In this document: positions 1,765 through 63,695 of the stretch, one piece after another
Numbering within the stretch: the stretch's first letter is position 1
How the letters are laid out: the number at the start of each line of letters is the position of its first letter
Virus record (IMG/VR): IMGVR_UViG_3300025707_000004
DNA from: a virus
Length of the DNA stretch: 64,000 bases
Strand: one strand, 5' to 3'
The notes under the pieces: generated by a model
The model's database searches: none
What the model was told of the DNA's origin: nothing
Seen by the model: the letters and a program-made list of their open reading frames with translations, nothing else
Translations under genes and position numbers: made by a program

Positions 1765-2102
1765 TGGCGGAGAAGAAGAAGCGAAATTGGGTGAATGCGG
1801 GGCCTGGATTGGGCACCGCATTGGGCACCGGTCTTGGGGCTGCTTCCGGCCTGCACGGTGGGCGCAAAGCCTACAAGAGCGCCAAGGCCCTGCGAGGTCT
1901 CGGGGTCGCGGCGAAGCTGAAGAAACGCCGCGCTCTCTGGCACCTTTTGGAGCGGGCCGTTACCGGCGGAGGCGCTGGGTGGCTGGTAGGCTCGGCCCCA
2001 CAACTGGTTCGGGACACGAAGAGGGCGCTGGAGAAGAAGGGCAGCATGTCCCTCCAGCGACGCGCTACAGTCCTCCACAAGCTGGCGGCTATTAGCCGCT
2101 AA
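1764..2102 (+). CDS. Small basic Gly-zipper protein ending in RRATVLHKLAA
   Basis: TGATG overlap with the previous gene; GxxxG runs (GLGTALGTGLG); its C-terminal motif matches the N-terminal motif of the 58700-61232 family. Confidence 0.7.
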   Translation: MAEKKKRNWVNAGPGLGTALGTGLGAASGLHGGRKAYKSAKALRGLGVAAKLKKRRALWHLLERAVTGGGAGWLVGSAPQLVRDTKRALEKKGSMSLQRRATVLHKLAAISR

Positions 2103-2104
2103 TA
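2090..2104. repeat. Dispersed palindrome copy 1, TATTAGCCGCTAATA
   Basis: Overlaps the stop codon of 1764..2102. Confidence 0.95.
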
Positions 2105-2115
2105 ATTGGTGAACG

Positions 2116-4017
2116 ATGGCTACGCTTACGATGGAGGACGCGACAGGACCTCAGCAGGTCCTGCAGAACCGTCCCGCGAATGTGCAGGTAACAGTCGCGT
2201 TGTCGGTTGGGGCCGTCTGGGGTGACTACGACGCCCCCGGTGATGGGGAGGGTTTCTTCCTGTACGGGCCGGAACACCACCCGGCCGGGCTGGGGCTTTC
2301 TGGGCTGTCCTCGACGTTGGAGGACAAGACGTTCACGCCCAAGGTAGCGGGGCGGTACCTCGTCATCTGTATCGTGACGGAGACAGGCGGCGACCAAGTC
2401 ACTCTTTCCGGCCTCTTTGAGATTGCCAGCGGGTACGGGGCTGAGGCTCTTCCGGCCCCACGCGAGGGCGGCCAGTACACGGACCAGACAGGCTGGTCCC
2501 GGTCTATCGAGCAGCACCTCCGCCGCCTCCAGCAAGTCCTTGGTGGGCGCATGGCTGTCATGGCCATCAACGGTACCGGCGCGGAGCGGTCGGCGGGGGA
2601 CTTGTCGCAGGTCACGGACTACGCCCGCTTCTCTGGGGCTGGCGCAGACGGTGACGCCATGTCCGCCCACCTGACGGACATCGTTGCCCAGACGGGAACG
2701 GCGCTCGGCACACAGGCGGCCATTGGGGATGCCTCGATTGGTGCGTGGCTGGGAACGGTCGCCAACGGCGCCACAGGCATGCTGATGCTGCGGGGCTACT
2801 TCCCCTTGGACACGTCGGGGTACACGGCCGAGAACGACCCGGTCTACATCTCGAACGGGGGGCTGATGGCGAAGGACGTCGGTGACTTCACGCGGCAGGT
2901 CGGCTACTGCCTCCAGAAGGCGGCGTCTACCATGGTGACCGCTACCGCGGGCATGGTGTGGTTCGACGGCGCTCCGGACACGTACGCGGTGGAGACCCAC
3001 AACGCCACACAGCTACAAGGCTACGCAGTTCATACCGACGCGCCCACAGACGGGCAGGTCATGGCCTGGGACAACGGGAACAGCCGGTGGGACCCGACTA
3101 CCCTCGTCCACAATGCCACGCAGCTCCAGGGCAGCACCGTTCACACGGACGCACCCACGGACGGCCAAGCGTTGGTGTGGGACAACGGCAATACGCGCTG
3201 GGACCCGACGACGCTGGTCCATAACGCTACCCAGCTCCAGGGCCGTACGGTCCACACGGACGCCCCGACAGACACACAGGTGCTGGCCTGGGATAACGGC
3301 AATTCGCGCTGGGCGCCCGCTACCCCGTCTGCGGCGGGCGATGGCGTGGGCGTCGGAGACTGGGCGTACACAGGCGCCACGCCCGTGCTGGCGGAGTGGG
3401 CCGACGCCAGCGGGTATGGTGGGGATCAGGCGCTGGCTACACGGGACACCGTGGATGTGAACGGCACGATCATCCGCATGGTCCTGACGGACGCCCTGCA
3501 GGCCCAGGGGGTGGTTCACACCACTAACACCCCCGCGACGGACTTCGTGTATGCGATGCGCCTCGCTGTCTCGCTCCCGCAGGGCATTGACCTGAACAAC
3601 GCCACACGGTTTCAGACGTCTTTCGCCTTCCTCAATGGCGTCACCGACGTGGATACAGACAACTGGTTCGGTGGGGGGCTGTTTTCCGACCTCCAAGAAG
3701 CGGCCGACTACGCTTTCGGTCCGATGAGCGGCGTCACAGCCACCGACTACTGGGACAACGACACCAACCCAGGCGCCAGCATGCGCATCGAGTTCTGGCG
3801 GGGCACTACGTACGACATCTTCCTGGAGCGGACGGGCACCGACCTGGATGTCTACTATGCCCTGCCAGGGCAGCTACCGAGCTTCATGTACCGGTACACC
3901 GGGGTGGTCGCTACTGCGGGCAGGCTGGCTGTTCGGGTAAACTCGGAAACGGCGGCTGAGCTGCCACGTGTGTACATGCTCGCGTTCAAATCCCTTGCCG
4001 CCGTCCCGGGGTACTAG
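2116..4017 (+). CDS. Tail fibre-like protein with three internal 37-aa repeats
   Basis: Repeats HNATQLQG..VHTDAPTDGQ...WDNGN.RW.P, typical of fibre shafts; likely beta-sandwich C-terminus. Confidence 0.65.
   Translation: MATLTMEDATGPQQVLQNRPANVQVTVALSVGAVWGDYDAPGDGEGFFLYGPEHHPAGLGLSGLSSTLEDKTFTPKVAGRYLVICIVTETGGDQVTLSGLFEIASGYGAEALPAPREGGQYTDQTGWSRSIEQHLRRLQQVLGGRMAVMAINGTGAERSAGDLSQVTDYARFSGAGADGDAMSAHLTDIVAQTGTALGTQAAIGDASIGAWLGTVANGATGMLMLRGYFPLDTSGYTAENDPVYISNGGLMAKDVGDFTRQVGYCLQKAASTMVTATAGMVWFDGAPDTYAVETHNATQLQGYAVHTDAPTDGQVMAWDNGNSRWDPTTLVHNATQLQGSTVHTDAPTDGQALVWDNGNTRWDPTTLVHNATQLQGRTVHTDAPTDTQVLAWDNGNSRWAPATPSAAGDGVGVGDWAYTGATPVLAEWADASGYGGDQALATRDTVDVNGTIIRMVLTDALQAQGVVHTTNTPATDFVYAMRLAVSLPQGIDLNNATRFQTSFAFLNGVTDVDTDNWFGGGLFSDLQEAADYAFGPMSGVTATDYWDNDTNPGASMRIEFWRGTTYDIFLERTGTDLDVYYALPGQLPSFMYRYTGVVATAGRLAVRVNSETAAELPRVYMLAFKSLAAVPGY
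2998..3324 (+). repeat. 3 x 111-bp tandem coding repeat
   Basis: Units start at 2998, 3109 and 3220; divergence is mostly synonymous. Confidence 0.9.
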
Positions 4018-4020
4018 CGT

Positions 4021-4755
4021 ATGTTGTCTGAAATCTCGGATGTGATTGCAGAGGTAACAAGCGTGGTGAACGCGGACGCGTACAACCGGGTAGCCCTCAA
4101 GGAGCTGAGCGAGGACGCTCTGGTGTACCTCGTCGGCCTTGGCACACGGGAGTTCCAGGAGGCACACAAGCTCACAGTCGACTCGCTGTGCGGCCCCATG
4201 ACCCGCTCGGTCATTGAGTCGCTGGTAGGCGGTATCGCACCTGAAGCGGTCGTCCCGTCTGCTGTCGAGGTCCCCGAGTCGGCGTTCCCTACACTCTTGT
4301 CTAGGGACGTGGTCAAGCGGACCTACGGCGACTTCGAGTACAAGGAGAACCCCGCCCAAAAGGGCGGCATCATCATCTCGAAGAGTTGGTCGTATGCCAA
4401 TATCGTCAAGGTAGACCTCCACATCGGTCGGCATGTCTGGCTGAACAAGAAGGTTGCAGTCGGGTTCGCTGACCTGTTCAGGGCCGCTTGCGCCGCCGGG
4501 GGCTACGTCCCCGAGCGGGTTGGCTCTTGGGTCCCGCGCCACATGATGTGGAATCCGACGAAGCCGCTGTCCAGGCATTCCTGGGGCATCGCGGTCGACT
4601 TCGACGCACGGCTCAACGGGTACGGGAAGACTGACACCATGCTGCGGAAGCACATGGGCTTTGTCGAAACCTTCGAGCAAGCCGGCTGGGCGTGGGGCGG
4701 TCGGTGGAGCACGCCGGACGACATGCACATGGAGTATTCGGGGGTCTGGAAGTAA
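4021..4755 (+). CDS. M15-family zinc peptidase (putative endolysin)
   Basis: SRHSWGIAVDFD and WGGRWSTPDDMHME motifs (His/Asp/His zinc ligands of peptidase M15). Confidence 0.85.
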   Translation: MLSEISDVIAEVTSVVNADAYNRVALKELSEDALVYLVGLGTREFQEAHKLTVDSLCGPMTRSVIESLVGGIAPEAVVPSAVEVPESAFPTLLSRDVVKRTYGDFEYKENPAQKGGIIISKSWSYANIVKVDLHIGRHVWLNKKVAVGFADLFRAACAAGGYVPERVGSWVPRHMMWNPTKPLSRHSWGIAVDFDARLNGYGKTDTMLRKHMGFVETFEQAGWAWGGRWSTPDDMHMEYSGVWK

Positions 4756-5964: not shown

Positions 5965-8900
5965 ATGAAGTACTTCGGTAAGCTCGCTGGGAACACCAAC
6001 GCGCACACGGCGCTCACGTCGATTCCTTCCGCCGCCACGGGCACGCCGTTCACCGCGCCCTCGCCGGGCGCGAAGCTGTTCACCAACGGTGAGAACTTCT
6101 CGCACGACGCGGTCAGTCGAGCGCTCTCGGCATTAGCCGCTAATAATGACTACGTCGCCAGCCTGCTCGACAGCCCGGTGCTGCGGGACGACTTCTTGGA
6201 GCCCCAGCAGACTGACGGTGGTGCGGACCAGTTCGGCTTTGAGGCTCTGGCGGGCGTCACGCAAGGTGCGACGGCCATCAACCTCGGTGACGCGTCCGGT
6301 GGGATAGACGCCGCCGCTGTGTGGCTCTACCACGGCTTGTTCGCTGAGCAGCTGTCTGAGTGCATCCGGCTTGTTCGCCAGGACGCGGACGGAGTCACGG
6401 AGATTCGTGAGCCCGTCGATGTCCGGTTCAACACGGGCGGCGGCGGAGCCAGCTCGGTCTTTCGCACGATTGCTACCACGGGTTCTCCGACGCGGCGTTA
6501 CCCGAAGGCGTGCGCGCCCATGCGGCGGGTCGGCTCGGACCTGCCCCCGTACTTGGGTAACTCGGACAACGGTATCGTCGCGGCCTCGTCGTGGGACTAC
6601 GACGGTGTGCGCCTCAAGGCGGCCACGTTCGCCAGTCGCTATGCACGCCCCGGCTGTTACGTCGAGGCGGCCAACGGCGGCAATGCAGGGCTCTACCGCA
6701 TCGCCTACGTCATGCCGTCTGAGGACACAGGCGCTGCCGGCACAGGGGACAAGGCTGTCCTGACCCGCGGTGGCTTGCACAAGGTGACTGTGGGTGACGG
6801 CACACAGTTCACTGCAGGCGACCGGGTCGAGTGGCAGACGCCCCCGAACCAAGCCGCGGCCTCCACGGCGGACGAGCGGGACAACTTCGCGTACTGCGTG
6901 TACATCGTCGGCAATGACTTGTGGCTCTTGCCCGCGTCTTCGTCTGAGGAGTTCTTGGTCGACGGCAAGGCGGTTGGCGTCAACAACGACAGCGGGGACT
7001 TCACAGGTAGCCTCCAGTCGGGGCAGGTCGGCCTGTGGGACCAAGAGTCTGGCGTCGTGGAGAACCACGGCCTGCTCAACGGCACGCGGCTCTACTCGCA
7101 GGCGACGACGAACTCCCTCATCTCCGCGGTCGAGCACGCTGGTTCGCCTGTGCGGTTCGACCCGAATCAGGCGGCCGGGAACGTCTACATCGTCAGCCCG
7201 CCTGGGTTCGCCTTGTCCCCCGAGCTGATTTACACCTACGGCGACCTCATCGGTGGCGACTACGGCGTGGACTGTCGGACGCTCTCTACCTTCCGTGAGC
7301 GCCTCCAGAGCCAGGGCATGTCGGCTGCACCGGGGCTGTCGGAAGACCCGTCTACCCGTCTTGGGCTGAGCCGCTCGGAGCAGGTGCGCCTGCGGACGTG
7401 GATGAAGGACGCGAAGGTCGGCAACCAAGCTGCGGCCACCAGCCTTGTGGGCGGCGTGAACACGTCGATGGCTCCCACGGCTCGCGTGCTTGGCGAGGAC
7501 CTCTGGAAAGTCACCGTTACCAATGACGACGGAGCGCTCCTGCTTGAGGCTGCCGGTGCGACTGCCGGTGCGAACTTGGGGCTCTACAACCGGGACGAGC
7601 CGAGCGCGCCGATTACGCGGGCGCTCATAGTCTCAGTCGCCGGGAACGTGATGGTCCTGCAGCGAGTGCGCAAGACCTTCGGCTCGGCCAGTGAGTGGGC
7701 ACCTGAGGATGACTGGTCGTCTGCGCCGATTGTTGTAGGTGGCCATGTTGGGGAGGGCTCCGGCTTCTCTGCAGGCGGGGACACCTTTCGGGTCACCTCC
7801 ATTGAGCACGCACCAATCCTAGACGACGATGTTGGCGCCGACCGGTTTCTGTCCGGCGGGCTGAACGACTCGTATTGGAACCTGCTGGACCGAGACCAAT
7901 ACTCCCGGTACCAGGGTGCCGGTCGCTTCATTGAGATGCATGCGTCTCGACCGCTCACGTTGCTCTTGCCCTCGGGTGCTGGGGTGAAGGAGGGCATCGA
8001 GCTGCGCCAGCAGGGCGGTGGTGTCGACGCCATCACCATTCGCGACCGTGATGCAGCTGCGGTTATCAACGCGCTGTTCGGTACGCACGAGACTAACGAC
8101 GAAGCCTACATCGGAGCCCTCAACCGCACGCTGGGCCTGACCAACGAGGCACGTGCGCTGCAGGCGCGACTGCACTGGACCAATACGGGTAGCTCCGCAG
8201 GATTCGGCTTCTCTGACGGGCACACCGGATTGGGGAACAAGATCCCGTTCAGCAGTGCTGACCACAACGTACTGCCATTGCAGGTTAAGTCGATACTGGC
8301 AGGCACTACGCAGGGGCTGACGGGGGCGCTCCAGGGCGCGGGCTCTAGCCAGCGCATGCTGGGCGACGGGCTCATCGGTCCCAGCGACCCGATTGGCTTC
8401 CCGATGTCCACGGCCGGGCTCTCGCTGGGTCTGGCTGTGAAGTCGGCGTTCAACTTCACCATCACCGAGGCGGACGACAAGATTAAGCGCCACGACGCCG
8501 GTGACCTTGAGAACGGTGTGCCCCTTGCGAACGGCGACGTGATTGCCGTTCAGCGTGCGTCGGGGACTTGGTACTTCTCCGCGGTGAGTTCGGTGGGCGC
8601 GGCTGATGCCGTTCTCGATGCGGGGATGGACGAGGACCTCACGGACGTCGTTGGCTACGTGGTCACCAACCCGTTCAAGGCCGCTATTGGGGCGTGCCTC
8701 GTCTACGTGCACGGCGCCGCGTATGCGGTGGCGGAAGTGGCGGTGGACATTACCCCTTCTGCTGTCGAGTACTTGGTGTGGACGGAAACTACGCGGACGG
8801 TTACGGCAGAGGCGGATGTCTCGGGGCAGGTTCTGAGTTCGGGTGGCCGGGTCATTCTGGCCAAGGTGACTACAGACGCCACCAGCATTACCCAGATTGC

Positions 8901-10660: not shown

Positions 10661-10675
10661 TATTAGCGGCTAATA
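10661..10675. repeat. Palindrome copy 3, TATTAGCGGCTAATA
   Basis: Immediately after the tailspike stop codon. Confidence 0.95.
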
Positions 10676-11920: not shown

Positions 11921-12130
11921 CTAGCCCCGGTTGTTAATCGCTTCGATTCGAGCGGACAAGTCCGCGTTGTACGCTTCCGTCCGGACCTTGGAGCGGTCCG
12001 AGATGAGCTTGGTCAGCTCCTTCACTCGCTCCACTCCGCCCGGCCTCGGGTTCTCCAGGATGTCCCAGATTTCCTGGAACCAAGGACACTTCTTCGGGTC
12101 AATGAAATCCATGTAATCCTCCTTGTTCAT
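11921..12130 (-). CDS. Small hypothetical protein, probably leaderless
   Basis: ATG lies 4 nt downstream of the P2 GATAAG element. Confidence 0.7.
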   Translation of the reverse strand: MNKEDYMDFIDPKKCPWFQEIWDILENPRPGGVERVKELTKLISDRSKVRTEAYNADLSARIEAINNRG

Positions 12131-12134
12131 AGTT

Positions 12135-12164
12135 CTTATCCCTTAAAGGGGTACCCGTTTTGCA
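12135..12164 (-). promoter_or_regulatory. Leftward promoter P2 (TGCAAA-N18-GATAAG)
   Basis: Matches P1 and P4; a palindrome copy lies just upstream of the -35 element. Confidence 0.7.
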
Positions 12165-12167
12165 CGT

Positions 12168-12182
12168 TATTAGCGGCTAATA
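12168..12182. repeat. Palindrome copy 4, TATTAGCGGCTAATA
   Basis: Intergenic, between the ncRNA 3' end and P2. Confidence 0.95.
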
Positions 12183-12191
12183 ATAGGGGTA

Positions 12192-13042: not shown

Positions 13043-13047
13043 TTGTC

Positions 13048-13076: not shown

Positions 13077-13085
13077 GGGTAAGAA

Positions 13086-14895: not shown

Positions 14896-15603
14896 TTACT
14901 GCTCCCTACCCTGATAGGTCCTGAAGGCGTACACAGCTAGTAGGAGGGCGTCGGCGAGCCCGTCGTCGGATGCCTTTATGAGGCAGTCAGGAAACAACGC
15001 CTGCGCCTGGGCGACGTGGGAGTGTTTCTTGTCTCGCTGGGCCTTGGCCTTGGCAGCCTTCTCACGCTTATCGAAGGCTTTGTCCTCCTCGCCGGCTTTC
15101 TGCGTGAGCGAGACCGACGCTGCGGTTGAGCACCCCATAGCCCGCTCCCACTTGGGGCCAGAGACCTCCTCGTACGGGATGCACAGTGTGGCGCAGATGC
15201 CCTCCCACAGGCCCCAGCCTTTGCCGATTTGGACGAGGCGCTCAGGGCCTTCACCCTTCCTCCCACGCTGCTTCTCGACCATGGCCAGAACGGCGCGGTC
15301 GTCTTGCTGCATGTAGGCCGCCAGGGCGACCTCGCTCCACGTGTAGACCTGCTCGAATTCCTCCTCCGGCATGTCCGGGTTTTTGACGGCGTCCAGGAGG
15401 TCGGTGTAGGTATGGAGCAGTCGGAGAGGCGCGTCCCGCTCCCGCCACAACGCGGCGAAGGGGAGCAGTAGCGCAGCCATCTGGGCCGGTAGGTAATTCT
15501 TCCCGGCCGTGGGGACATTATTAGCGACTAATACTTGCGCGCCGTCTGCCACGACCGCGATTGCGCCGCTCTTCCCGGGGTCGATGCCTACCGTGATAAT
15601 CAC
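14896..15603 (-). CDS. RuvC-like Holliday junction resolvase
   Basis: VGIDPGKSGAIA, MVEKQ and DGLADALLLA acidic motifs. Confidence 0.8.
   Translation of the reverse strand: MIITVGIDPGKSGAIAVVADGAQVLVANNVPTAGKNYLPAQMAALLLPFAALWRERDAPLRLLHTYTDLLDAVKNPDMPEEEFEQVYTWSEVALAAYMQQDDRAVLAMVEKQRGRKGEGPERLVQIGKGWGLWEGICATLCIPYEEVSGPKWERAMGCSTAASVSLTQKAGEEDKAFDKREKAAKAKAQRDKKHSHVAQAQALFPDCLIKASDDGLADALLLAVYAFRTYQGREQ
15519..15533. repeat. Palindrome copy 5, TATTAGCGACTAATA
   Basis: Inside the RuvC gene; encodes VLVANN. Confidence 0.95.
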
Positions 15604-21141: not shown

Positions 21142-23940
21142 TTACTTGCACCCAGCCCAGTCGGCCGCGTCTTTTCCGGTGGTGTCTAGGGGGACCAGCA
21201 GGTCATATGGCAACGAGTGTTCCATATGGTGCTGGAGGCGTCCAACAAAACGGGGATTACGAGCCGCGGAGATTGGGGCCTCCCCGACGATTTCATCGTG
21301 GACCTGTAGGAGCATGCGGTAGCCCATCTCGTAGAGCCAGTCATCCTCGTAGGTCTTAATCATGGCCATCTTGGTGACGTCCGCCGCGGTCCCCTGGATG
21401 GGAGTGTTCTTGGCGCGGCGTTCCGCCTGGGCGATATCCCCGCGTAGGTGGGACCAGATGCCCGGGATTTGCCGCCGCCGACCGAGAATGGTGGTGACTA
21501 CCCCGGACTCTTCGGCTAAACCAATGACCCGACGAAGGTGGTCCTGCACCCCGGGCATCTGCTGGAAGTACGTGCGGATGTAGTCCTTGGCGACCTCCAC
21601 CTTGACCCGCAGCTCTCGGCTGAGCTTCTGCGGACCCATGCCGTAAATCAGGCCGAAGTTGATGGCCTTGGCCGCCTTCCGGGCCGTGAGGCACTCTATC
21701 TCTCGGGGACTCAGCGGCTCGTACGGGTGCCCGGCCTTTTTCAGTTCGTCGATCTCGTCGTCCCGTGCCCGAGCTGCCATGATTTCGTCGTAAGGCAGCT
21801 TGAACATGAGCGCGGCGCAGGAGCAGTGGACATCCTGCCCACTACGGATAGCCTGGATGAGATTGGGCTCCTGGCTGAAGTGCGCGACGATGCGCATCTC
21901 CAGTTGGCTGTTCTTTACGAAGACCCCTGCAGCCAGCGCGTAGTTTCTGTGCGGCGCTACTCCGATGCTCCACACCTGCTGGTTTACTTGCAGCTGCCGG
22001 ACAGCTACGACCTTGTGGTTTCCTCCCTGTCTTTTGTGGTCGAAGTAACAGGTACGGGAGCAGTACTTCTTCTTCGTAGAAGCGAATGTCTCTATCGGTT
22101 GGTCACAGAACAGGCAGGCGGTGTACACCCGCCCCCTACGGTCGCCATGACGGGGATTGTTTTTCCCGTTGTAGCCCCCACGGTCGGCGATGCTCTGACG
22201 GATACCCGACTGCATGGCTGCACGCGTCTCAGGGTCCCGCCATTGACGCGTACAAGACTCCTTCGCGTGCTCGGAGAGGTGCAGGCGGGCGTCCAGGTAC
22301 TCCAGGTTATCGGGGTGGTTGTTTAGGCTGTCTCCGTCCTTGTGGTGCGTGTGGTAGCCCTCAGGGCGGGCGCCCATCGCCCAGGCCGCTACCTCTGTGT
22401 GCGTCTTGGAATAAACGACCGCTTGATGGGCGTAGAGATGCTCGTAATTTCGGTTCGTCCCCCCGTACGCCCTCCGCAGAGGAAGCAGGCGCATTCCAGG
22501 GATTAGGTCCTGCGCCTCTACGCCAATGGGGTCTGCCACGTACTTCTCAGGACAAACCATGAACTTGTGCTCGCCCGTGCAGACAATCCGCTCTCCGTTG
22601 TCCAGCTCAATCTCAACGACGGGCTCAACGCCGACAGCGTGGTGCTCATCTACGGTACCTACTACAGGAACCCGCCTGTCAGGGTCGTAGGAGAAGACAG
22701 GGTCCCCCACCTGCAAAGATTCAATCGGCCGAGGGCCGAGCGGGGTGTCAACCAGGGTGCCGGTTGCGAAGCAGTAATCCCTAGCAATTAGTACTTTTTC
22801 TTCGCCCGCGATGTAGGCGAAGCGGATGTACCCAGGTTGATTTTGTAAATTCGGATCCGCGCTCGATAGGCGGCCGGTACGAGCACCAGCTTGCTTGTAC
22901 GTGGTGTGGATGCGCCCGCGGTGCTCCAACTTGAGCAGCCCACGCACGTAGGTGGCTTGCTTCTTCTTCAGGTCGCGGTAGGCGAGCAACTTGTCCGCGT
23001 AGACACAACCATCAGAAGCGATGCGCGACAACCACTTCTGCGGGAGCTGTGGGGCACCTTTCTCGGTGTACGAGGGGGGGTTGTACCCCAGGTCCCCAAA
23101 GAACAGCTCAATCATCTGCGGGTTTGAGTTGAGGTTGATGCCCACCTTCTTGGTCTTCTTCACGAACCACCGCATGAGGGCAATCATCTTGCGGTCGAGT
23201 TCAGGCGCGATTGCGATGAGCCGGTGCTTGTCCAGCCCGATGCCGTTGCTCTCGCACTCGAAGAGGACCCGGGTGAAGGGGACCTCGGTGTGCCGGAAGT
23301 AGTCCCACAGGGTGGGGTACTCCTCGACACCAGTATTAGTCGCTAATAGTTTCTTCTGGAGCGCGACTGCCAGGGCGAAGGTTGAGTAGGCGTCGAGCCC
23401 CGCGTAGTTCGCCACGACAGGCTCATTGGCGGGGTCCAGGAATATCTCGTGCAGCTTCCGGGTGCGCATCTGCGCGCCGAAGGTGGCCTTGAAGTCCACC
23501 ATAACGATGCCGAGCATCTCCTTGGCTGCGTACTTCAGTGTGTGCGGCCGGTCGTCGTAATCCAGCGCGTGCATAATCATGGCGTCGAAGACGCGGTAGG
23601 TCGTGCGGTCGCAGTTGCGGTAGATGTCGATGCCGGCGTTCCGCAGCATCCAGGTGTCGAAGTTGGCGTTCCACATGAGCAGCTGTAGCTCAGGGTCTTC
23701 TAGGTACTCCGTGAAGTAGGAGAACGCCTCGGGCCATATCGCGTAGCGGTTCGGCCCGGTAGAAAGGCTCATGATGAGCGCGTAGTCGCGTTGCCGGCTC
23801 AAGCCGGTGGTCTCAGTGTCAATCGCGACTACGCGAGAGCGCTTGCCGCCCTTCCCAATGCGCAGCTGGGCGAGGGCGACTTCGGCCTCCTGCCGCGTCT
23901 TGATGAGCATGGTAGGAGGAAGGACGGCGAACTTACCCAA
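21142..23940 (-). CDS. polA: Family A DNA polymerase with 3'-5' exonuclease, intein-containing
   Basis: IDTETTG, TGRLSS.DPNLQN, DY|SQLEMR, RKAAKAINFGLIYG, NTPIQGTAAD and VHDEI motifs. Confidence 0.95.
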   Translation of the reverse strand: MGKFAVLPPTMLIKTRQEAEVALAQLRIGKGGKRSRVVAIDTETTGLSRQRDYALIMSLSTGPNRYAIWPEAFSYFTEYLEDPELQLLMWNANFDTWMLRNAGIDIYRNCDRTTYRVFDAMIMHALDYDDRPHTLKYAAKEMLGIVMVDFKATFGAQMRTRKLHEIFLDPANEPVVANYAGLDAYSTFALAVALQKKLLATNTGVEEYPTLWDYFRHTEVPFTRVLFECESNGIGLDKHRLIAIAPELDRKMIALMRWFVKKTKKVGINLNSNPQMIELFFGDLGYNPPSYTEKGAPQLPQKWLSRIASDGCVYADKLLAYRDLKKKQATYVRGLLKLEHRGRIHTTYKQAGARTGRLSSADPNLQNQPGYIRFAYIAGEEKVLIARDYCFATGTLVDTPLGPRPIESLQVGDPVFSYDPDRRVPVVGTVDEHHAVGVEPVVEIELDNGERIVCTGEHKFMVCPEKYVADPIGVEAQDLIPGMRLLPLRRAYGGTNRNYEHLYAHQAVVYSKTHTEVAAWAMGARPEGYHTHHKDGDSLNNHPDNLEYLDARLHLSEHAKESCTRQWRDPETRAAMQSGIRQSIADRGGYNGKNNPRHGDRRGRVYTACLFCDQPIETFASTKKKYCSRTCYFDHKRQGGNHKVVAVRQLQVNQQVWSIGVAPHRNYALAAGVFVKNSQLEMRIVAHFSQEPNLIQAIRSGQDVHCSCAALMFKLPYDEIMAARARDDEIDELKKAGHPYEPLSPREIECLTARKAAKAINFGLIYGMGPQKLSRELRVKVEVAKDYIRTYFQQMPGVQDHLRRVIGLAEESGVVTTILGRRRQIPGIWSHLRGDIAQAERRAKNTPIQGTAADVTKMAMIKTYEDDWLYEMGYRMLLQVHDEIVGEAPISAARNPRFVGRLQHHMEHSLPYDLLVPLDTTGKDAADWAGCK
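21910..22773 (-). mobile_element. Intein (288 aa) with HNH endonuclease, in PolA motif A
   Basis: Begins CFATGTLV; block B CTGEHKF; HHKDGDSLNNHPDNL; ends VFVKN|S; removal restores DYSQLEMR. Confidence 0.9.
23334..23348. repeat. Palindrome copy 6, TATTAGTCGCTAATA
   Basis: Inside polA; encodes LLATN. Confidence 0.95.
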
Positions 23941-28896: not shown

Positions 28897-28911
28897 TATT
28901 AGTCGCTAATA
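28897..28911. repeat. Palindrome copy 7, TATTAGTCGCTAATA
   Basis: Overlaps the stop codon of the UDG-like gene. Confidence 0.95.
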
Positions 28912-36517: not shown

Positions 36518-39500
36518 ATGGCGGATATCCATACCCTGGACCCAGAGAGGGCGATGCAAGCCCTCAAAGACGGCACAATCCAGGTTCTCAAAGACACCCT
36601 CCCGATTGAGGGGCGGACGCGCATCTTGCGCGCTACAAACGTCTATGCTGGGCCCAACGTCCACATCGACGACATACACGCTCAAAAGCGGGCCAGGGTC
36701 CGCAATCGGACATGGGCGGTCCCCATCCTCGCGGACATGGAGCTGGTGGACAAAGCCTCCGGCAAAGTGGTGTCGAAAACCAAGGGCGTGCGGCTGCTGA
36801 ATCTGCCGCACTACACCCGCCGGTACTCGTTCATCGTGGACGGGACGGAGTACCAAGCAGACAACCAGTGGCGCCTCAAGGCCGGCGCGTACACACGTAT
36901 GAAGGCTAACGGCGGACTGGAGACCCAGTTCAACCTGAGCAAGGGCCGCGGGTTCCGTGTGAGCTTCGACCCCAAGAAGCGCCAGTTCCTGGCCACCCAC
37001 GGGACGACCAACACGCCCCTCGTGCCCCTTCTTCAGACACTGGGTATCAGCGCCGAGGAGATGGAGACGGCCTGGGGGCCGGAGGTCTACCAGACCGCCG
37101 CACGCCTTCAGCGCAAAGGGCAGATGGCGAAGCTCGCCAAGACCCTGAACCCCCGGTCCGAAGCGACCACTCCCGAGGAGGTCGAGGATGTTGTACGTGA
37201 GTCGTTCGCGGCGACCGAGCTTCGCCCGGACACCACCAGCGTCACCTTGGGCAAGGGCTTCACGACCGTCACCGGCGAGGCGCTGCTATTAGCGGCTAAT
37301 AAGCTGCTCGGCGTTTCTCGTGGGACGGCCGAGGTGGACAACCGTGACTCCCTCCGGTTCAAGGAGCTGTGGACGGTGGCCGACCACCTCCCGGAGCGCA
37401 TCAAGAACTCGCGTCGTCGGGTGGAGCGGAAGATCCGCAACAACCTGGACCGCCGTGACGACATCCGCAAGATTGTGACCCCTGACGTTTTCAACGTCCC
37501 GGTCAAGTCGTTCTTCACCTCGACCTCCCTGTCTCAGCGCCCCTCACAGCTGAACCCGGTCGACATGATTGGCGGGCACCTCAAAGCCACCCTGATGGGC
37601 ACCGGCGGTATCAGCACGGAGAACGCGGTCAGTCATTCTGCCAAGATGCTGGACTCTAGCCAGATGGGCTTCACTGACCCGTTTCACAGCCCGGAGGGGA
37701 CCCGAAGTGGTATCACCACGCACCTGACGCTGGGTGTCTCCAAGCGAGGCAACGAGCCGGTCATCAAGGTGTGGGACGTGAAGAACAGCAAGTGGGCGGA
37801 TGTCTCCCCCACGGAGCTGCACGGGAAGACGCTGGCCTTTCCCGACCAGTACGACACGGGAGACGGAAAGACCTTCAAGCCTCGGAAAGACCTCATCACG
37901 GTCATCCGCGGGGGTGAGGGTGACCCCACCAATGTGAAAGCCAACGAGGTGGACTATGTTCTGCGATCTCCCAAGGCGATGTTCTCATTCACTGCGAACC
38001 TCATACCGTTCTTGCCCTCTGACCAAGCGAACCGTGCGGGAATGGCTGCGCGTCACATGGAGCAGACGGTTCCGCTGAAGAACCCCGAGGAGCCCCTTCT
38101 TCAGGTGGCTTCTGGCTCGGACCAGCCGGCATGGGACACCTGGGAGAAGATTCTCGGCCAAATGCAGTCACACGCCAGCCCGGTGTCCGGGACGGTGAAG
38201 TCGGTCGAAGCCGAGCGCATTGTGGTGGCAGGGGACGACGGCAAGAAGCACGTTGTCCAGCTCTACGATAACTACCCCCTCAACGACTCCAAGGCGTTCG
38301 TTACCAGCAAGCCCCTGGTGCAGAAGGGCGACGAGGTCAAGAAGGACGACGTCATCGCTGACACTAGCTTCACCAAGGGCGGCGTCCTCTCGATGGGCAC
38401 CAATCTGCGCGTGGGCTATCTGGCGTACAAGGGGCTCAACTACGAGGACGGCATCACCATTAGTGAGACGGCCGCCAAGAAGCTCACCAGTGAGCACCTG
38501 CACAAGCCGCGTGTGTACCTGGACACCGGGATGATGATGGGGCTGAAGAAGTTCCGTGCGAACTTCCCCGGGGTTGTCTCTGACGCGAACGCCGCCAAGC
38601 TCGACGAGGATGGGGTCATCAAGCGTGGCGAAATCGTCCGCCCTGGTGACGTGATTGCCACAGTGCTCAAGGAGGCGGACCCTTCGGCAGAGCAAATCAT
38701 GCTCAAGGGCATCCACAAGAGCTTGGCCAAGCCCTACAGGGACCGCTCGCTCACGTGGAACAAGCCGTACACGGGTGTGGTCACGGAGGTCGTGCGTAAC
38801 GGCAAAGAGGTCGTCGCTTACGTCAAGACGGCAGAAGAGGCCGACATCGGCGACAAGCTGACCTCACGCCATGGGAACAAAGGCGTCGTGGTTGCCATCC
38901 TCCCGGACGAGGAGATGCCCCGGGATGGCGATGGTGCCCCGCTGGAGATTGTGCTGAACCCCTCGGGTGTTCCTGGGCGCATCAATCCTGGGCAGGTCCT
39001 GGAGAACGCCATCACGCTCGCAGCGGTCGAGGACGGGAAGCCCTACGCGGTCTCGAACTTCGATGGCGACGAGGGGCACCGCATCAGCGTGGGCGACGTG
39101 TCCACCAAGATCGTCCAGGTCAAGGGGCACTACCGGACAATCAAGTCCGGGAAGGGCTCGAAGCGCATCTGGATTGAACCCTACGAGTACGAGACCGGTT
39201 ACAAGGGGCTCATTGACCAAATCCTGGAGAAGAAGGGCCTGTCGGAGACGACGGAGCTGTTCGACCCGGAGACGGGGAAGAGCCTGGGCCCAGTCATGAC
39301 GGGGCACCAGTACATCCTCAAGCAGGAACACCAAGTCGACAAGAAGCTGTCTGCCCGCGCGCACGGCTACGGGCATGCTTACAACGCCAACATGGTGCCG
39401 CGAGGTACCTACGGTGGTAACGACGGCGCTCAGCGGTACGGCGAGCTGGGCCTCTACGCGATGATTGCCCACGGCGCGGTCAACAACATCCGCGACGCTC

Positions 39501-43954: not shown

Positions 43955-45252
43955 TGAGTGGGCTCTCTAAATCCCCTGAGCAGGCGTCGCGCCCAGGGCG
44001 GCTGGAGCTGTGCGAAGTTACCGATGTGAACACCACCGAGTTCACGGTGAGCCTCATGGGGGTGTTCACGCACAAGCCTCATGCGGAGATGCCCTTTGCC
44101 TCGCTGTACTGCCACCCCGACCACGGCGGTGGTGTGTACGTGATGCCCGAGGTGGGTGCCTACGCCTACGTGTTCACGTCAGCAGACGGCACGTCCATGC
44201 TGATGGGGTTCGTTACCAACCCACAGTCCGTCGAGGGGGAGGTCTTCGATAAGAACGGCACCCCTACGCTCATCGAGTCCTCGAAGGGGCCGGACTTCTC
44301 GGGCTTCCGCTTGGACATGGAGCCCGGCGACATCGCGATGGCGACCAAGGATGGCAACCGTGTTGTCCTTCGTCGCGGGGGCATCGTCCAGATTGCGGCA
44401 ACGGGTATCGCCCAGCGGCTGTACATCCCCGTTGGCAATGTCATCCGGGACTACTTCGAGCGCTATCAGGCCCGGTCGCCGCAGGGGCGCATCGAGTGGG
44501 GGCACGCGACTATCCTGGAGGAAGACGACGACACCGTTGCTGTGCTGATTGAGTACGACTTCAAAGAGTCCATCGAGGACACCGCAGCGGCGGTGGAGGT
44601 TCGTTTCGGGCAGCTGACGTTCGATGTGCTGGACCCGGAGAAGGCTGGCAAGCACCACACATTTGCCAGGAACAAGCAGGACGACTACGAACTATTAGCG
44701 ACTAATATTGGGGTGCTCAGCTGCACCGTGATGTCGCGCGACGAGGTGCCCGCGGTTACGTACGCCGTACAGGTCTCCCGAGAGGGTGACTGCTTCATGA
44801 TGTCGAAGGGCCATATCCAGGTAGAAACCGAGTCGCTGTACCTCAAGCTAGGGCAAAAGGGTAAAGTTGTCTTCGGAGCTAGCTTCATCGAGGCTATAGC
44901 GGAGTCCAACAGGCTGAAGGCGGTGGTCAGGGAACTGCTCTTGGAAAGCACCGAACTGATACACATGAGGGCAGCTGAAGCCACAATGAATCTAGGGGCT
45001 GTACGAATGCAGTTCGAGGGCGGAGCCCTGACCATTACCCCGCCGGGGGGTGGTCGTGTGGATTTCGGTGGCCCTGGCGGACACGACGTCGTGATTAACA
45101 GCCACGACCTGCTTCGTGCGATTCGTGACCACGAGCACTACATTGAGGGGGCGGTCCCCTCAACGAACGCCGGAATCGTGAGGGCTAAGAAGTCCCCTAC
45201 GCTCGGCGGGATTACCAGAGCAACCTCGACACTTCTAAAGACGACTAGGTAG
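43954..45252 (+). CDS. Baseplate spike/GpV-like protein
   Basis: N-terminal OB-like V.DV...GGVYVMPEVG followed by beta-strand repeats and a C-terminal HEH. Confidence 0.45.
   Translation: MSGLSKSPEQASRPGRLELCEVTDVNTTEFTVSLMGVFTHKPHAEMPFASLYCHPDHGGGVYVMPEVGAYAYVFTSADGTSMLMGFVTNPQSVEGEVFDKNGTPTLIESSKGPDFSGFRLDMEPGDIAMATKDGNRVVLRRGGIVQIAATGIAQRLYIPVGNVIRDYFERYQARSPQGRIEWGHATILEEDDDTVAVLIEYDFKESIEDTAAAVEVRFGQLTFDVLDPEKAGKHHTFARNKQDDYELLATNIGVLSCTVMSRDEVPAVTYAVQVSREGDCFMMSKGHIQVETESLYLKLGQKGKVVFGASFIEAIAESNRLKAVVRELLLESTELIHMRAAEATMNLGAVRMQFEGGALTITPPGGGRVDFGGPGGHDVVINSHDLLRAIRDHEHYIEGAVPSTNAGIVRAKKSPTLGGITRATSTLLKTTR
44693..44707. repeat. Palindrome copy 10, TATTAGCGACTAATA
   Basis: Encodes LLATN. 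Confidence 0.95.
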
Positions 45253-47209: not shown

Positions 47210-48073
47210 ATGCGGGTTCCATACGAGCGGTGGCTGAAATGCCTTGTACAGTTCCAGGGCATGACCATTCAGGAAGCGATTCTCGTCGCTGACTCGTACG
47301 GTTTCATTCCACCGACCAACGAGACCCTCACCTTCGTCCGCTTGGAGCTTGCTCGCGGACGCCCAAAGCCCTTCAAGCCCGAGTCGACTGAGGCCATCCG
47401 CTGGATTCGCGATGCGGGCTTGTGGTCGATGCACGTCGAGACGGAGCACGTCACCGCAGCGCGCGGCATTCTGAGCCAGCTTCAGCTGCGCCGTGTCGTG
47501 GAGTTTCTATTAGTCGCTAATACTCCGCACAACGTGGTGTCGGAATATGCCCGTGACGTGTTGGGTGTCGCCATCGACGCTGCGGCCATCGCGGCTTACG
47601 AGCACTACTTCTGGGACGCCAACTCTCTGACCCAGCGGCAGTGGGTGGCGTACTTCAAGGGGGAGTTCCACCAGGAGCGTAAGGATCAGGCCGCCAACGG
47701 TGTCCGGGCGAAGGACATGACCGTCCCCATCATGTCGCTGCAGTCGAAGAAGCTGCTCGACACGATGCGTATGCGGAGCCCCGAGTACGCACTCTGGCAG
47801 CTGGGCCACCGCGTTGAGCTGGGACGGGACCAAGTCCTTGGCTCGATGTTCCATGAGGCAGCCATGAGGTTCACCGAGACCAGCTTGATGAGCAACTGCC
47901 TGCACACCGCGCAGACGGCCAAGCTCTGGACGGAAATCCTGATGAGTTCAGACGACCGTCTGGCGGGCACGGGGAACCAGACTCAGCAGCTACTGGAGGA
48001 GCTGCGAAGTATCCGTATTCGGACGCAGGAAGTTAAGGTATCTTCCATCGAAGAGTTGCGAGGAGACACCTGA
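47210..48073 (+). CDS. Hypothetical protein
   Basis: Operonic; codon bias. Confidence 0.6.
   Translation: MRVPYERWLKCLVQFQGMTIQEAILVADSYGFIPPTNETLTFVRLELARGRPKPFKPESTEAIRWIRDAGLWSMHVETEHVTAARGILSQLQLRRVVEFLLVANTPHNVVSEYARDVLGVAIDAAAIAAYEHYFWDANSLTQRQWVAYFKGEFHQERKDQAANGVRAKDMTVPIMSLQSKKLLDTMRMRSPEYALWQLGHRVELGRDQVLGSMFHEAAMRFTETSLMSNCLHTAQTAKLWTEILMSSDDRLAGTGNQTQQLLEELRSIRIRTQEVKVSSIEELRGDT
47508..47522. repeat. Palindrome copy 11, TATTAGTCGCTAATA
   Basis: Encodes LLVAN. Confidence 0.95.
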
Positions 48074-54011: not shown

Positions 54012-54219
54012 TGAGGCGCACTACCCCGTTCTTCTTCGCATAGACCGTGTAGTTCGGTAGGACTTCGCGAAGCGCGGCCTTGAAGCCCGCATTATTAGCG
54101 ACTAATAAAAGGGGGTCGACCTGTAGGACGAAGCCACCTTCGGTAGTCTCAATCTTGTGGACCAGCCCACTGAGGGCGCGATCCACGTGGGCAAGGTCAT
54201 CTGGTATTGTCGAGGACAT
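53860..54219 (-). CDS. Hypothetical protein, antisense island
   Basis: Palindrome copy 12 reads LLVANN in this frame, as it does in bona fide genes. Confidence 0.55.
   Translation of the reverse strand: MSSTIPDDLAHVDRALSGLVHKIETTEGGFVLQVDPLLLVANNAGFKAALREVLPNYTVYAKKNGVVRLIKRKQNTRRNRAGSRLKLEQVGEAFETQAVEVQEQGDDGAADAVDFFAPD
54093..54107. repeat. Palindrome copy 12, TATTAGCGACTAATA
   Basis: ~110 bp upstream of the terminase start. Confidence 0.95.
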
Positions 54220-61232: not shown

Positions 61233-62890
61233 TGGACAAGCTCATCACTTTCTCTGGCGTCTCCTCTACGGGGGAGCCCCTCGTCCAGGCGTTGTTCCCT
61301 GACGTCGACGACGGGAAGGTGAAGGTTGCATCCTTCAGCCGTCTCCACCCGGAGATGCAGAAGTACGTCGACAGTTACAAGCCGCGCCCCGGCAAGCTGT
61401 GCGTCCTGGTCAACGCCCTCGGTGCGGGTGAGTACTACGGCTCCAACGTCAACGCGGATTACTTCGAGGAGTCGGAACTCGACCCGCAGGAGTTCAAGGG
61501 GCTCCCGGTCGACGTCAACCACCCGAGCCTGTACGGGCACCAGACGTTTCTCCGCGCGAACGTCTTCAGGCACCACAAGAACAAAGACCCCGGCATCACC
61601 TACGGGCAGATCGTAAAGGTCGTCTACAACGAGGTTATGCACCGCGTCGAACTCATCATTGAGATTGACCGACGCCGTGCTGAGGAGCTGGGGTACCAGG
61701 ACCTCTTGTCGGAGCTGGATGCGGGCGGCCACCCAGCCGTAAGCATGGGTGCGCGGGTCAAGTACGACGTCTGCAGCATCTGCGGCAACAAGTCGTTCAC
61801 GCGCGCTGACTACTGCAACGACATGAAGATGATGCGCAATCAGGTCCTCCCTGATGGCCGCAAGGTGTTCGTGTACAACCCGAAGCCGAAGTTCTTCGAC
61901 CTGAGCTTCGTCATCATCGGTGCAGACAAGACCAGCTACGCCATGCTCAAGGTGGCCTACGCCCAGGAGGCGTTGCAGCACGGCCTGTCGGCTGACGCTG
62001 CGGCTGTAGCCGGAACGGGCCGAGACTTCGACCGCCGCATCCTCTTGCAGAAGATGGCGGAGGTCCAGAAGAAGGCCACCATCACCAAGCGCATCCCTTC
62101 GCTGGCCCATGGCCTCAGTCCGCACCTTGCTTCCCGTGAGCCCGACATGGACATGGGGCAGATGCAGGAGCTGGCGAGGCAGCCAATCGAGCGGACCCTC
62201 ACCAGTACCGGCGCTGCTGGGATGGTGTTGAAGCCCTCGGAGTTCCAGACCATCGTGCTCATCAAGATGCGCCAGCCCCGTTTGGCGCGCGAGATGTGGG
62301 ACGGCGGTCAGTGCTTCGCCCCTGAGTCCGGTGCGGATATGGGGATGCGTTGGGGGAGCCCCCGCGATTATCAGCCGCTAATAACGCGCGCCCTGAGTCG
62401 CATCCTCGGACGTCGTAGTGCGCTGGGTGAAGACCCCGGTGTAGGCCGCCCTCGCTGCATCGTTCGCGTTGTCCGGCCGGTCGAAAGTAACACCCCTCTT
62501 CTCACGAAGGTGGCCGAGGGTTACAACGGATACAGAATTCAGCTTCTGGAGAAGGCACCTTCTCTAGTAAGCTCAGTGACAAGTAGAGACGGAGACCTGC
62601 TATCAACCGTCTTCGGCGAAGTGCTTGAAGGTTCGTTGCTGGGTTTGGAAAAGAGCGCTGGGATCCCCCCCGAGCTACTGACCGACACCAGCCTTGCTTA
62701 CCTTTATGGGGCTCACCACCAAGGTTTCGGTGGGCTTACGAAGAGCGCTTCCGCTGTTGATGAGTTCGTTGAGCGGCATCCCGTGCTGGCGGCATCGCTT
62801 CTGCTCGGTTTGGTTCGACTTGGGAACCAACTGCACAGGACTGGAAAGCTCGGTCAGCTTTTGCATGCAGGTCTAGCTAAGCTGACCTGA
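61232..62890 (+). CDS. Putative prohead (capsid maturation) protease
   Basis: NVNADYF, VFRHH, G.IV, VSMG (candidate catalytic Ser), CSICGN and FFDLSFV..GAD pattern of HK97/herpes-fold phage proteases. Confidence 0.6.
   Translation: MDKLITFSGVSSTGEPLVQALFPDVDDGKVKVASFSRLHPEMQKYVDSYKPRPGKLCVLVNALGAGEYYGSNVNADYFEESELDPQEFKGLPVDVNHPSLYGHQTFLRANVFRHHKNKDPGITYGQIVKVVYNEVMHRVELIIEIDRRRAEELGYQDLLSELDAGGHPAVSMGARVKYDVCSICGNKSFTRADYCNDMKMMRNQVLPDGRKVFVYNPKPKFFDLSFVIIGADKTSYAMLKVAYAQEALQHGLSADAAAVAGTGRDFDRRILLQKMAEVQKKATITKRIPSLAHGLSPHLASREPDMDMGQMQELARQPIERTLTSTGAAGMVLKPSEFQTIVLIKMRQPRLAREMWDGGQCFAPESGADMGMRWGSPRDYQPLITRALSRILGRRSALGEDPGVGRPRCIVRVVRPVESNTPLLTKVAEGYNGYRIQLLEKAPSLVSSVTSRDGDLLSTVFGEVLEGSLLGLEKSAGIPPELLTDTSLAYLYGAHHQGFGGLTKSASAVDEFVERHPVLAASLLLGLVRLGNQLHRTGKLGQLLHAGLAKLT
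62369..62383. repeat. Palindrome copy 13, TATCAGCCGCTAATA (1 mismatch)
   Basis: Inside the protease gene, in a different reading frame (YQPLI). Confidence 0.85.
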
Positions 62891-62964
62891 TTGAGCGCAC
62901 CTAGACTCGGAGAACCGGGTCGACGATGATGCCCTCGCTCTGACATTCAAAAAGGGATTCAAAA

Positions 62965-63603
62965 ATGAGCAACAGTTTTGTTGACCAGCTCCTGTCCGGT
63001 GGTACCGACCACGGCGAGCTGGAGAAGATCGCGGGCCCTGAGGCCCTCAACGTGCTCGAAGAGCTGGAGAAGACCGCGGCTGCTGAGGGCATCGACCTCG
63101 GCCAGTTCACGGACGACCAGATCGTCGAGATGATTCGTCAGACCATGGGCGAAGAGGTCGGCGAGCAGGTCGCTGCCGCTCCTGGTGGCGAAGAGGGCGT
63201 GGAGAAGGTGGCTTCGGCTCCCGGCAACGACCTCCCCGCTGGCGTCGACATGGAGAAGGTCGCTGCGGCGGACTACCTCGGTCGCGTTCAGGCGCACGCC
63301 ATGGCTGAAGAGCTGGCGGGCATCTGGGGCCAGGGTGACGACGGCATGGACAAGGTCGCGAGTGTCGAGGACATCACCGAGGACGAGTTCAACCAACTCG
63401 CCGCGATGAACGCCAACGACATCTTGGAGCAGCTCGGCGCGCTGGAGGGTGACACCCTGGAGCAGACCGAGGGCCGCGAGAAGGTCGCTTCGCTCTCGTT
63501 CGACGAGGAGCTGACCGACCTGCTTGGCAACCGCACCGCGGAGCTGCTTGACGCGGCCGGCTGGGATGTGGACGCCATCGCTGCGGCGTTCGACGAGGAG
63601 TAA
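62965..63603 (+). CDS. Acidic scaffold-like protein with six [ED]K-x-A motifs
   Basis: EKIAG, EKTAA, EKVAS, EKVAA, DKVAS, EKVAS; directly after the protease. Confidence 0.6.
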   Translation: MSNSFVDQLLSGGTDHGELEKIAGPEALNVLEELEKTAAAEGIDLGQFTDDQIVEMIRQTMGEEVGEQVAAAPGGEEGVEKVASAPGNDLPAGVDMEKVAAADYLGRVQAHAMAEELAGIWGQGDDGMDKVASVEDITEDEFNQLAAMNANDILEQLGALEGDTLEQTEGREKVASLSFDEELTDLLGNRTAELLDAAGWDVDAIAAAFDEE

Positions 63604-63621
63604 TCCTCATCGGGTCCGCTT

Positions 63622-63659
63622 GAAGAAGGGCGGGGGAAGCAATTCTCCCGTCCTTTTTT
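63622..63659 (+). terminator. Intrinsic terminator
   Basis: AAGGGCGGGGGAA-GCAA-TTCTCCCGTCCTT stem-loop followed by a T-run. Confidence 0.8.
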
Positions 63660-63680
63660 CTGACTACCGCTTCGACAAAT

Positions 63681-63695
63681 TATTAGCCGGTAATA
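63681..63695. repeat. Palindrome copy 14, TATTAGCCGGTAATA (1 mismatch)
   Basis: Intergenic; nested within an outer CTTCGACA/TGTCGAAG inverted repeat. Confidence 0.85.

Follow-up and report, generated by a model that had tools for sequence, protein, structure and literature searches.

A 15-bp palindrome, TATTAG-YCG-CTAATA, recurs along a 64,000-nt stretch of the virus record IMGVR_UViG_3300025707_000004 (hereafter the window; G000:C1:76325-140324, minus strand, of the 142,974-bp IMG/VR record). It is most likely a docking site for a ParB-like clamp encoded by the phage itself, because its core matches the operator (OB) of KorB, a protein of the IncP-1 plasmids. The putative partner is the ParB-family protein P0121, and the two form a concrete and testable pair, namely a 15-bp site of known sequence and a protein of 433 aa. 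The record has a guanine plus cytosine content of 62% and a completeness of 79% (CheckV), and metagenome contigs of up to 188 kb carry the same phage, the 188-kb one being scaffold_20 of ENA ERZ23491365.

The Palindrome in the Record and in Its Relatives

In the window, TATTAG-NNN-CTAATA is found in 11 perfect copies and three copies with one mismatch, separated by gaps of 1.3-8.3 kb (table 1). Dinucleotide shuffles of the window gave 0.00 perfect copies and 0.15 copies with two or fewer mismatches. The original prediction, made from the sequence of the window, had listed exactly these copies, and its positions, its counts of centers on the plus strand (eight YCG and six CGR) and its range of gaps were all right.

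The whole record holds 28 perfect copies, or 33 when one mismatch is allowed, at a mean density of one site per ~4.3 kb. By comparison, 200 codon-preserving shuffles of the genes called in the record, which keep each protein and the codon usage of each gene, contained a mean of 0.035 perfect copies and at most one. The sites are also evenly distributed. The coefficient of variation of the gaps is 0.49, compared with 0.97 under random placement, none of 20,000 simulations being this low, and the largest gap in the record is 8.4 kb, where 17.5 kb would be expected (P = 1.5e-4). A codon-preserving null and a check of spacing regularity had both been proposed with the original prediction, and the motif stands out in each of them. 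When IMG/VR was scanned for the exact motif, nothing came up but isolated matches in unrelated contigs, attributable to chance.

Alignment of the copies shows that the symmetry reaches AT-TATTAG-YCG-CTAATA-AT, with the outer bases conserved at ~50% (the 19-mer form of the site is ATTATTAGCCGCTAATAAT). Past the 19-mer, the flanks show no features on either side and no asymmetric downstream element. Twenty-one copies have CCG at the center and 13 have TCG, and the central CG step is present in 33 of 34 copies. In effect, the site is a palindrome with 7-bp arms, TATTAGC-S-GCTAATA, that tolerates T for one of the two innermost Cs. The YCG center occurs in either orientation (15 vs. 19), irrespective of gene direction.

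The inner 11 bp, TTAGCSGCTAA, are identical in the phage site and in the KorB operator, and both have an odd center of C or G. The OB oligonucleotide of KorB reads ..TTTTAGCGGCTAAAA.. (PMC11790492), and the first 50 kb of the IncP-1β plasmid R751 contain 10 copies of TTAGCSGCTAA.

As regards their location, 20 of the 33 copies in the record are not fully within genes, as against 12.7% of noncoding DNA (binomial P = 1.3e-10). Nineteen of these 20 are placed upstream of a gene start, within ~250 nt or, in one case, at ~480 nt. The other 13 copies lie deep inside long genes, and such copies are over-represented in the window, which is rich in long genes. Genes were called with our own codon-usage caller, and single gene boundaries are approximate. 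Several copies provide the stop codon of the upstream gene, end 11-13 nt ahead of the next start and adjoin the Shine-Dalgarno sequence; the number of copies ending 11-13 nt before a start codon is six. Beside several sites, an A-T is followed by a GGAG Shine-Dalgarno sequence, not by an ATG start codon. The stop-providing copies are read as the tightest fit of a 15-bp site into a gene junction of ~28 bp.

Within genes, only one reading frame can pass the motif, as TAT TAG stands in frame 1 and ..C TAA in frame 2, whichever strand is read. The constant peptide x-L-[AV]-[AT]-N, which the original prediction took as a sign of selection, is therefore forced by the stop codons TAG or TAA in the other two frames and is no evidence. 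Selection on the DNA rather than on the protein, which had also been claimed, is supported by other signs. Three intragenic copies do lie in frame 1 (62369, 69445, and 94413 on the scale of the window, the latter two past its end), and each of them has its single mismatch inside the would-be TAG, reading TAT CAG twice and TAT TAC once. At the site in the RNA polymerase (RNAP) gene, the phages with the motif read L-L-A-A/G-N with TTA and AAT codons, whereas the aligned columns hold A-T-A-K and A-S-A-A in two relatives that lack it. Three intragenic sites are found at exactly the same gene offset in phages with RNAPs 59% identical. The even spacing, the enrichment in noncoding DNA, the mismatches in the TAG codon and the changed peptide at the RNAP site together show selection on the DNA. 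In a comparison of orthologous genes, another check proposed at the outset, sites were kept at their offsets in two related loci (L103 and L104), and the RNAP site was replaced by other peptides in relatives that lack the motif.

In order to follow the motif among relatives, 80 loci of the RNAP family (~10-30 kb each) were taken from IMG/VR, and 30 records were scanned allowing one mismatch. Seventy-eight of the 80 loci have two or fewer copies, and the motif occurs at density only in the nearest clade. It is present in L103, in L104 and in G001, the last with 11 sites in 30 kb, and is sparse in G004, G005 and G007, the counts in sister genomes being five in 63 kb, eight in 181 kb and four in 178 kb. 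The 21 of 30 records with RNAPs 45% identical or less contain no copies at up to one mismatch, except two single-mismatch matches in G013 (one in the control). In G005 and G011, which are complete, a search for palindromes made de novo revealed no genome-wide equivalent of the motif.

The Phage ParB Protein and Competing Explanations

The gene of P0121 is located ~19 kb past the end of the window (table 1). Pfam did not recognize the single P0121 sequence, and the match of PF17762 to the phage gene itself (E = 2.3e-4) was below the cut-off. An exhaustive HMMER search collected 46 relatives, and a profile built on 30 of them matches Spo0J (1vz0, E = 8e-27), Noc, ParB structures with CDP or CTP, and KorB (8qa8, E = 7e-7). 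PF17762 (HTH_ParB) is found in 18 of these 30 homologues and PF02195 in 11, and the hhalign comparison of the P0121 family with KorB of R751 gave a probability of 95.8%. The AlphaFold2 model of P0121, with a predicted local distance difference test (pLDDT) of 79.7, has ParB, Noc, and KorB chains as its top Foldseek matches. P0121 has the N-terminal domain of ParB (CTPase fold), followed by a helix-turn-helix (HTH) of ParB type.

A C-terminal dimerization domain is also predicted. The homodimer model reached an interaction prediction score from aligned errors (ipSAE) of 0.51 (best control 0.00) through an interface of helices at residues 301-361, with runs agreeing in at least 58% of contacts and a partner pLDDT of at least 76. 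Of the proteins solved as pairs, 20 of 30 come up to this ipSAE mark, as does one of 23 solved as single chains, and the pass of the P0121 model may partly be owed to its likeness to solved ParB dimers.

P0121 has a Box III (ENLAR) as well as the invariant N48/R50 and G110/R113. The last ~70 residues (~363-433) form a disordered tail of Lys, Ala, and Pro similar to histone H1 or HC2; one homologue matches PF07382 (HC2), and in the short-form ParBs of the sister phages no more than a brief KKKRKK stretch is left. Equivalents of Thr211 and Arg240, the contact residues of KorB, were sought in P0121. T254 of P0121 aligns with T203 of R751 in a weak local alignment in which the Arg is not placeable, and this was not used as evidence.

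The motif tracks the clade of long-form ParBs. The palindrome precedes parB by 105 nt in this phage, and by 102, 147, and 114 nt in three short contigs with ParBs 86%, 43%, and 38% identical, respectively. These contigs have four to six copies each, which become more degenerate with distance. The ParB homologues of motif-poor genomes are shorter proteins of about 300-350 aa. As recognition helix, the phages with the motif have SQxTVSQY, the motif-poor ones SQPQVSVM or SxxW[VI]SxR, and KorB has SPAFVTQH, a pattern which, at the level of sequence, is compatible with covariation of protein and site. In the sister clade, the parB of G005 is preceded by one TATTAG-N4-CTAATA at a distance of 116 nt, and G006 and G007 have TTGTCA-type palindromes in the respective position; this clade neither confirms nor refutes the pairing of ParB and site.

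The palindromes are probably binding or loading sites of P0121 as a protein of the ParB/KorB/Noc kind. A ParB dimer, joined by its C-terminal helical domain, would read the two TATTAGC half-sites by means of its ParB-type HTH. By analogy with ParB, Noc, and KorB, it would close as a nucleotide-gated clamp and slide or spread onto the flanking DNA, and with a site every ~4.3 kb and no gap above 8.4 kb the protein could reach the whole genome. Where no intergenic DNA is at hand, the site would be placed within a gene, in the one frame that is free of stops.

As to what such a clamp might do, global silencing or timing of transcription as by KorB and organization or compaction of the DNA as by Noc or condensin appear about equal, and compaction could be helped by the lysine-rich tail of histone H1 type. 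The even spacing and the presence of sites in essential genes argue for coverage of the whole molecule over control of particular promoters. Classical ParABS partition is the least likely. The ParA families PF13614 and PF01656 were not found in the 79%-complete record, nor PF13614 in four relatives at least 99% complete, and no integrase was found in the record or in four relatives of 99-100% completeness, three of them with direct terminal repeats. As neither ParA nor integrase was found, partition of a classical plasmid prophage is unlikely.

About 40 sites are expected in the full genome. It can be suggested tentatively that a phage of virulent type (~188 kb) with its own RNAP uses an orphan ParB clamp with an H1-like tail, loaded at ~40 evenly spaced sites similar to KorB OB, to coat or condense the whole of its genome. 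If true, the phage DNA would be a self-marked domain, in the form of a ParB condensate or of a global silencing, which separates phage from host DNA or times expression, and no such use of the ParB switch is known from lytic phages. If the pairing of P0121 and palindrome holds, it suggests that the loading sites are spaced to match the distance over which the clamp slides or spreads, to the effect of covering the whole replicon, and the KorB-type recognition code would be found outside the IncP-1 plasmids. Phages commonly encode ParB-CTPase proteins, among them many orphans without a known role (PMC12704722).

Several observations weigh against P0121 as the protein that binds the palindrome. 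Its sequence is nearer to chromosomal ParB and Noc than to KorB, and PF08535, the Pfam domain specific to KorB, was not found in it even at E <= 1. Box II reads GFQRVAG, that is, GFQR for GERR, where the relatives and KorB have G-x-R-R, and to judge from the sequence CTP binding is uncertain. ParB homologues are also found in the motif-lacking relatives G011 and G022, and as the short form in G005-G007, and therefore the presence of ParB does not predict the motif. The differences in the recognition helix may be a matter of phylogeny alone, as they are not separable from shared ancestry. Finally, the window encodes a second, weak HTH protein (table 1), and other candidate binders may be encoded in the ~45 kb missing from the record.

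This HTH protein leads to the explanation that the sites are global operators of another dimeric regulator outside the ParB family, either a phage protein, such as the XRE-like one of 141 aa, or a protein of the host or a plasmid, acting on many promoters as a conventional repressor or activator. The 20 noncoding sites and the placement of 19 of them shortly upstream of gene starts are in line with this, as are the three copies adjoining a conserved promoter-like element, the 6-N3-6 form of the palindrome, which is typical of HTH dimers, and a weak HTH_3 match in the XRE-like gene. Nevertheless, it is rather unlikely, since 13 sites are deep in long genes, three of which are position-conserved at 59% protein identity, and promoter-bound operators are not expected to be evenly spaced. 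In addition, the XRE-like gene also occurs in the motif-less relative L114, and the match to the site of a ParB-family protein would be a coincidence.

The operator function as such is a different matter. The original prediction had set ordinary operators aside on the ground that few copies are near promoters, which was premature, as most copies are intergenic and upstream of starts, three abut the promoter-like element, and KorB is a repressor and a ParB protein at the same time.

Given a phage with an RNAP of its own, an AT-rich motif in a GC-rich genome and six copies that end 11-13 nt before a start codon, beside a Shine-Dalgarno sequence, the palindrome could be a promoter or start signal for the single-chain β-β′ RNAP, spaced by short transcription units. 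Little probability is given to this. The motif and its flanks are symmetric, with no asymmetric element downstream, the orientation of the center does not follow gene direction, and a start 11 nt before the ATG leaves almost no leader. Moreover, 78 of the 80 relative loci with the same RNAP have two or fewer copies, and the distance of 11 nt is explained by a 15-bp site with its own stop codon in a junction of ~28 bp.

Very improbable is an RNA element, in which a hairpin at gene junctions would be a processing site, a translational operator or a stabilizer. Several copies are indeed between a stop codon and the next Shine-Dalgarno sequence, and a palindrome would give the same hairpin in transcripts of both directions, but this hairpin is too weak (15-mer, -0.8 kcal/mol; 19-mer, -2.8 kcal/mol). 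It is the sequence that is conserved and not the pairing, as there are no compensatory changes and the degenerate copies of relatives break the stem on one side only. Besides, one copy is in a convergent region of terminator type and 13 are inside essential genes.

Some phages have localized, regularly dispersed, specific nicks. Targets of a DNA transaction, such as T5-like site-specific nicks, a modification mark or recombination sites, would agree with the regular dispersal of specific sites and the invariant CG step (33 of 34 copies), but they have hardly any likelihood, since no nickase, recombinase or methylase is linked to the motif and nicks in both strands of a palindrome would sever the genome.

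With P0121 as the probable binder, the original interpretation is partly supported. Sites of a dimeric protein of the parS/Noc kind agree with the OB core, the encoded ParB, the predicted dimer, the even spacing and the other peptides of motif-less relatives at the RNAP site, whereas packaging or staged ejection, also named there, found no support; the interpretation was largely right in kind, wrong on the reading frame and too quick to exclude operators. The literature gave no report of the motif in a phage, in line with the original prediction, but its core is the long-known OB site of IncP-1.

Sites and Neighboring Genes

The coordinates of the sites and of the other features are given in table 1. 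The copies that the original prediction had placed in PolA and RNAP genes are indeed there, the names of these genes having been checked.

Table 1. Palindrome copies and other features of the phage record (window coordinates, unless otherwise indicated)
Feature	Position	Strand	Form and context
Palindrome	2090..2104		Perfect, TATTAGCCGCTAATA; overlaps the stop of a 112-aa open reading frame (ORF); next start codon 11 nt on
Palindrome	6131..6145		One mismatch, CATTAGCCGCTAATA; within 1564-aa gene, open frame A-L-A-A-N
Palindrome	10661..10675		Perfect; convergent intergenic region, 1 nt past the stop of the 1564-aa gene
Palindrome	12168..12182		Perfect, intergenic; 3 nt upstream of the TGCAAAAC-N14-GGGATAAGAACTATG element leading a minus-strand gene
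Palindrome	15519..15533		Perfect; within 235-aa minus-strand gene, V-L-V-A-N
Palindrome	23334..23348		Perfect; within PolA-type DNA polymerase gene, L-L-A-T-N
Palindrome	28897..28911		Perfect; overlaps the stop of a gene like uracil-DNA glycosylase (UDG); 13 nt upstream of next minus-strand start; position kept in L103
Palindrome	33989..34003		Perfect; within 224-aa gene at +535, identical offset in L103
Palindrome	37287..37301		Perfect; fused β-β′ RNAP gene at +769; position kept in L103 (91% identity) and L104 (59%)
Palindrome	44693..44707		Perfect; within gene after RNAP; offset ~+740 kept in L103 and L104
Palindrome	47508..47522		Perfect; within 270/287-aa gene; offset +298 kept in L103 and L104
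Palindrome	54093..54107		Perfect; ~145 nt upstream of the preferred terminase large-subunit start, 54251; coding status uncertain, weak 108-aa minus-strand ORF
Palindrome	62369..62383		One mismatch, TATCAGCCGCTAATA; within 552-aa gene, frame 1; TAT CAG, TAG stop removed
Palindrome	63681..63695		One mismatch, TATTAGCCGGTAATA; intergenic, 44 nt upstream of next plus-strand start
Promoter-like element	12127-12164, 13351-13388	minus	Two copies in the window
Promoter-like element	G000 reverse-strand coordinates 112679, 119636, 128553, 129234, 142072, 142888	reverse	Copies past the window
Stretch without a called ORF	12183-13120		~940 nt between two promoter-like elements
PolA-type DNA polymerase gene	21142-23940		HNH-like insertion
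XRE-like gene	31944-32369		141-aa product; weak HTH_3 match at 32196-32294
Fused β-β′ RNAP gene	36518-43954		LAGLIDADG_2 intein, missing in the 94%-identical P0003
Large terminase gene	54251-57088		Intein-bearing; signals are Hint/LAGLIDADG_3
P0121 (parB) gene	Record 55,657-56,958 (L107:5683-6984)	plus	433 aa
GGTGACCACAA-N2-4-TTGTGGTCACC palindromes	L107:4074-4240, L107:5346-5520		Three copies ~70 bp apart on each side of the 373-aa gene

The phage family is large and mostly uncultured, with single-chain RNAPs, and is probably the lineage described in PMC7481178, where neither ParB nor palindromes are mentioned. In this uncultured single-chain β-β′ RNAP lineage, gene regulation and DNA organization are almost uncharted. 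A search of GenBank phages for near relatives gave nothing close, the best match of the terminase having only ~30% identity, and searches for related loci from the portal-like protein and from ParB alignments gave nothing. A DnaB helicase and an SNF2 helicase are also encoded by the phage. Mobile insertions are present in three essential genes, that is, those of the RNAP, the large terminase and the PolA-type polymerase.

The promoter-like element TGCAAAAC-N14-GGGATAAGAACTATG is conserved over ~38 nt and occurs in eight copies, all of them intergenic and on the minus strand. In three of the eight, a palindrome is located 1-6 nt upstream, much like the class I OB sites. The ATG of the first copy in the window, the only one checked, is the start codon of a small gene, and the element looks like an early promoter of the phage with a leader that is very short or absent. 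The ~940 nt between the two copies of the window hold no ORF that passes the codon-usage caller, and ARAGORN found no tRNAs across the whole window, this stretch included.

The gene order around parB (L107, which is G000:C1:49975-61975) is kept in relatives down to 43% ParB identity. It consists of a 373-aa gene, ParB, an AAA+ ATPase, a RecA/KaiC-like gene, DUF2997 and a radical-SAM gene. A set of ThiF/E1 and JAB-like genes is located upstream. Searches with the 373-aa gene directly upstream of parB gave no family. This gene is flanked on each side by three copies of the palindrome GGTGACCACAA-N2-4-TTGTGGTCACC, and the cassette as a whole is bracketed by two TATTAG..CTAATA sites and resembles an iteron, origin-like or centromere-like cassette.

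Comparison with Known Systems

Among the known systems close to that of the phage are the OB sites of the IncP-1 plasmids, which are likewise palindromes of 13-15 bp. KorB is a CTP-dependent sliding clamp which silences promoters at a distance (PMC11790492). It is both a ParB-family protein and an operator-binding repressor, and IncP-1 plasmids such as RK2 and R751 carry about a dozen scattered OB sites, or about one per 5 kb. In R751, some of the OB sites adjoin promoters, while others are remote from them or located within genes, as in the phage. The OB form TTTAGCSGCTAAA shares 11 of 13 bases with the phage site, and the two outermost bases differ symmetrically (TTTTAGC vs. TATTAGC in the phage). 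On the other hand, the OB sites of R751 are clustered, with gaps of 0.5-17 kb, whereas those of the phage are even and about three times as many. The phage record, 79% complete, yielded no IncC/ParA, and the replicon is a large, apparently virulent phage and not a plasmid.

Noc of Bacillus is likewise an orphan ParB paralogue without ParA, with dozens of palindromic sites across its replicon, and its structures are among the best fold and profile matches to P0121. The Noc-binding site (NBS) reads ATTTCCCGGGAAAT, and its half-site begins with TATT, as in the phage. However, the NBS is an even site of 14-16 bp with another core. Noc also has an N-terminal amphipathic helix for membrane targeting, whereas residues 1-30 of P0121 are predicted to be disordered, with a pLDDT below 50 and no helix in the AlphaFold2 model and an acidic sequence rich in Ala and Pro. 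Furthermore, it is not obvious what use a phage would have for nucleoid occlusion, by which Noc acts on division.

P1 with ParB and parS and N15 with SopB provide phage-encoded proteins of ParB type with cognate inverted repeats. In N15, the repeats IR1-4 are several separate centromere sites, according to the account given in PMC7205306, which cites Ravin and Lane 1999. These systems differ in having a ParA or SopA partner, in being low-copy plasmid prophages and in using one to four sites, compared with at least 33 in this phage.

The stoperators of cluster A mycobacteriophages (L5 and Bxb1) are two to three dozen copies of a short repressor site that affect transcription away from promoters. 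They are asymmetric 13-mers, oriented with transcription and largely intergenic, and are bound by the immunity repressor of a temperate phage. Dozens of copies of one short site through a phage genome are common to both cases, but the sites described here are palindromic including their flanks, free of orientation and partly intragenic. What goes beyond the known systems is the combination of dozens of sites, set at a nonrandomly even spacing of ~4 kb, forced into essential genes and kept at 59% protein identity.

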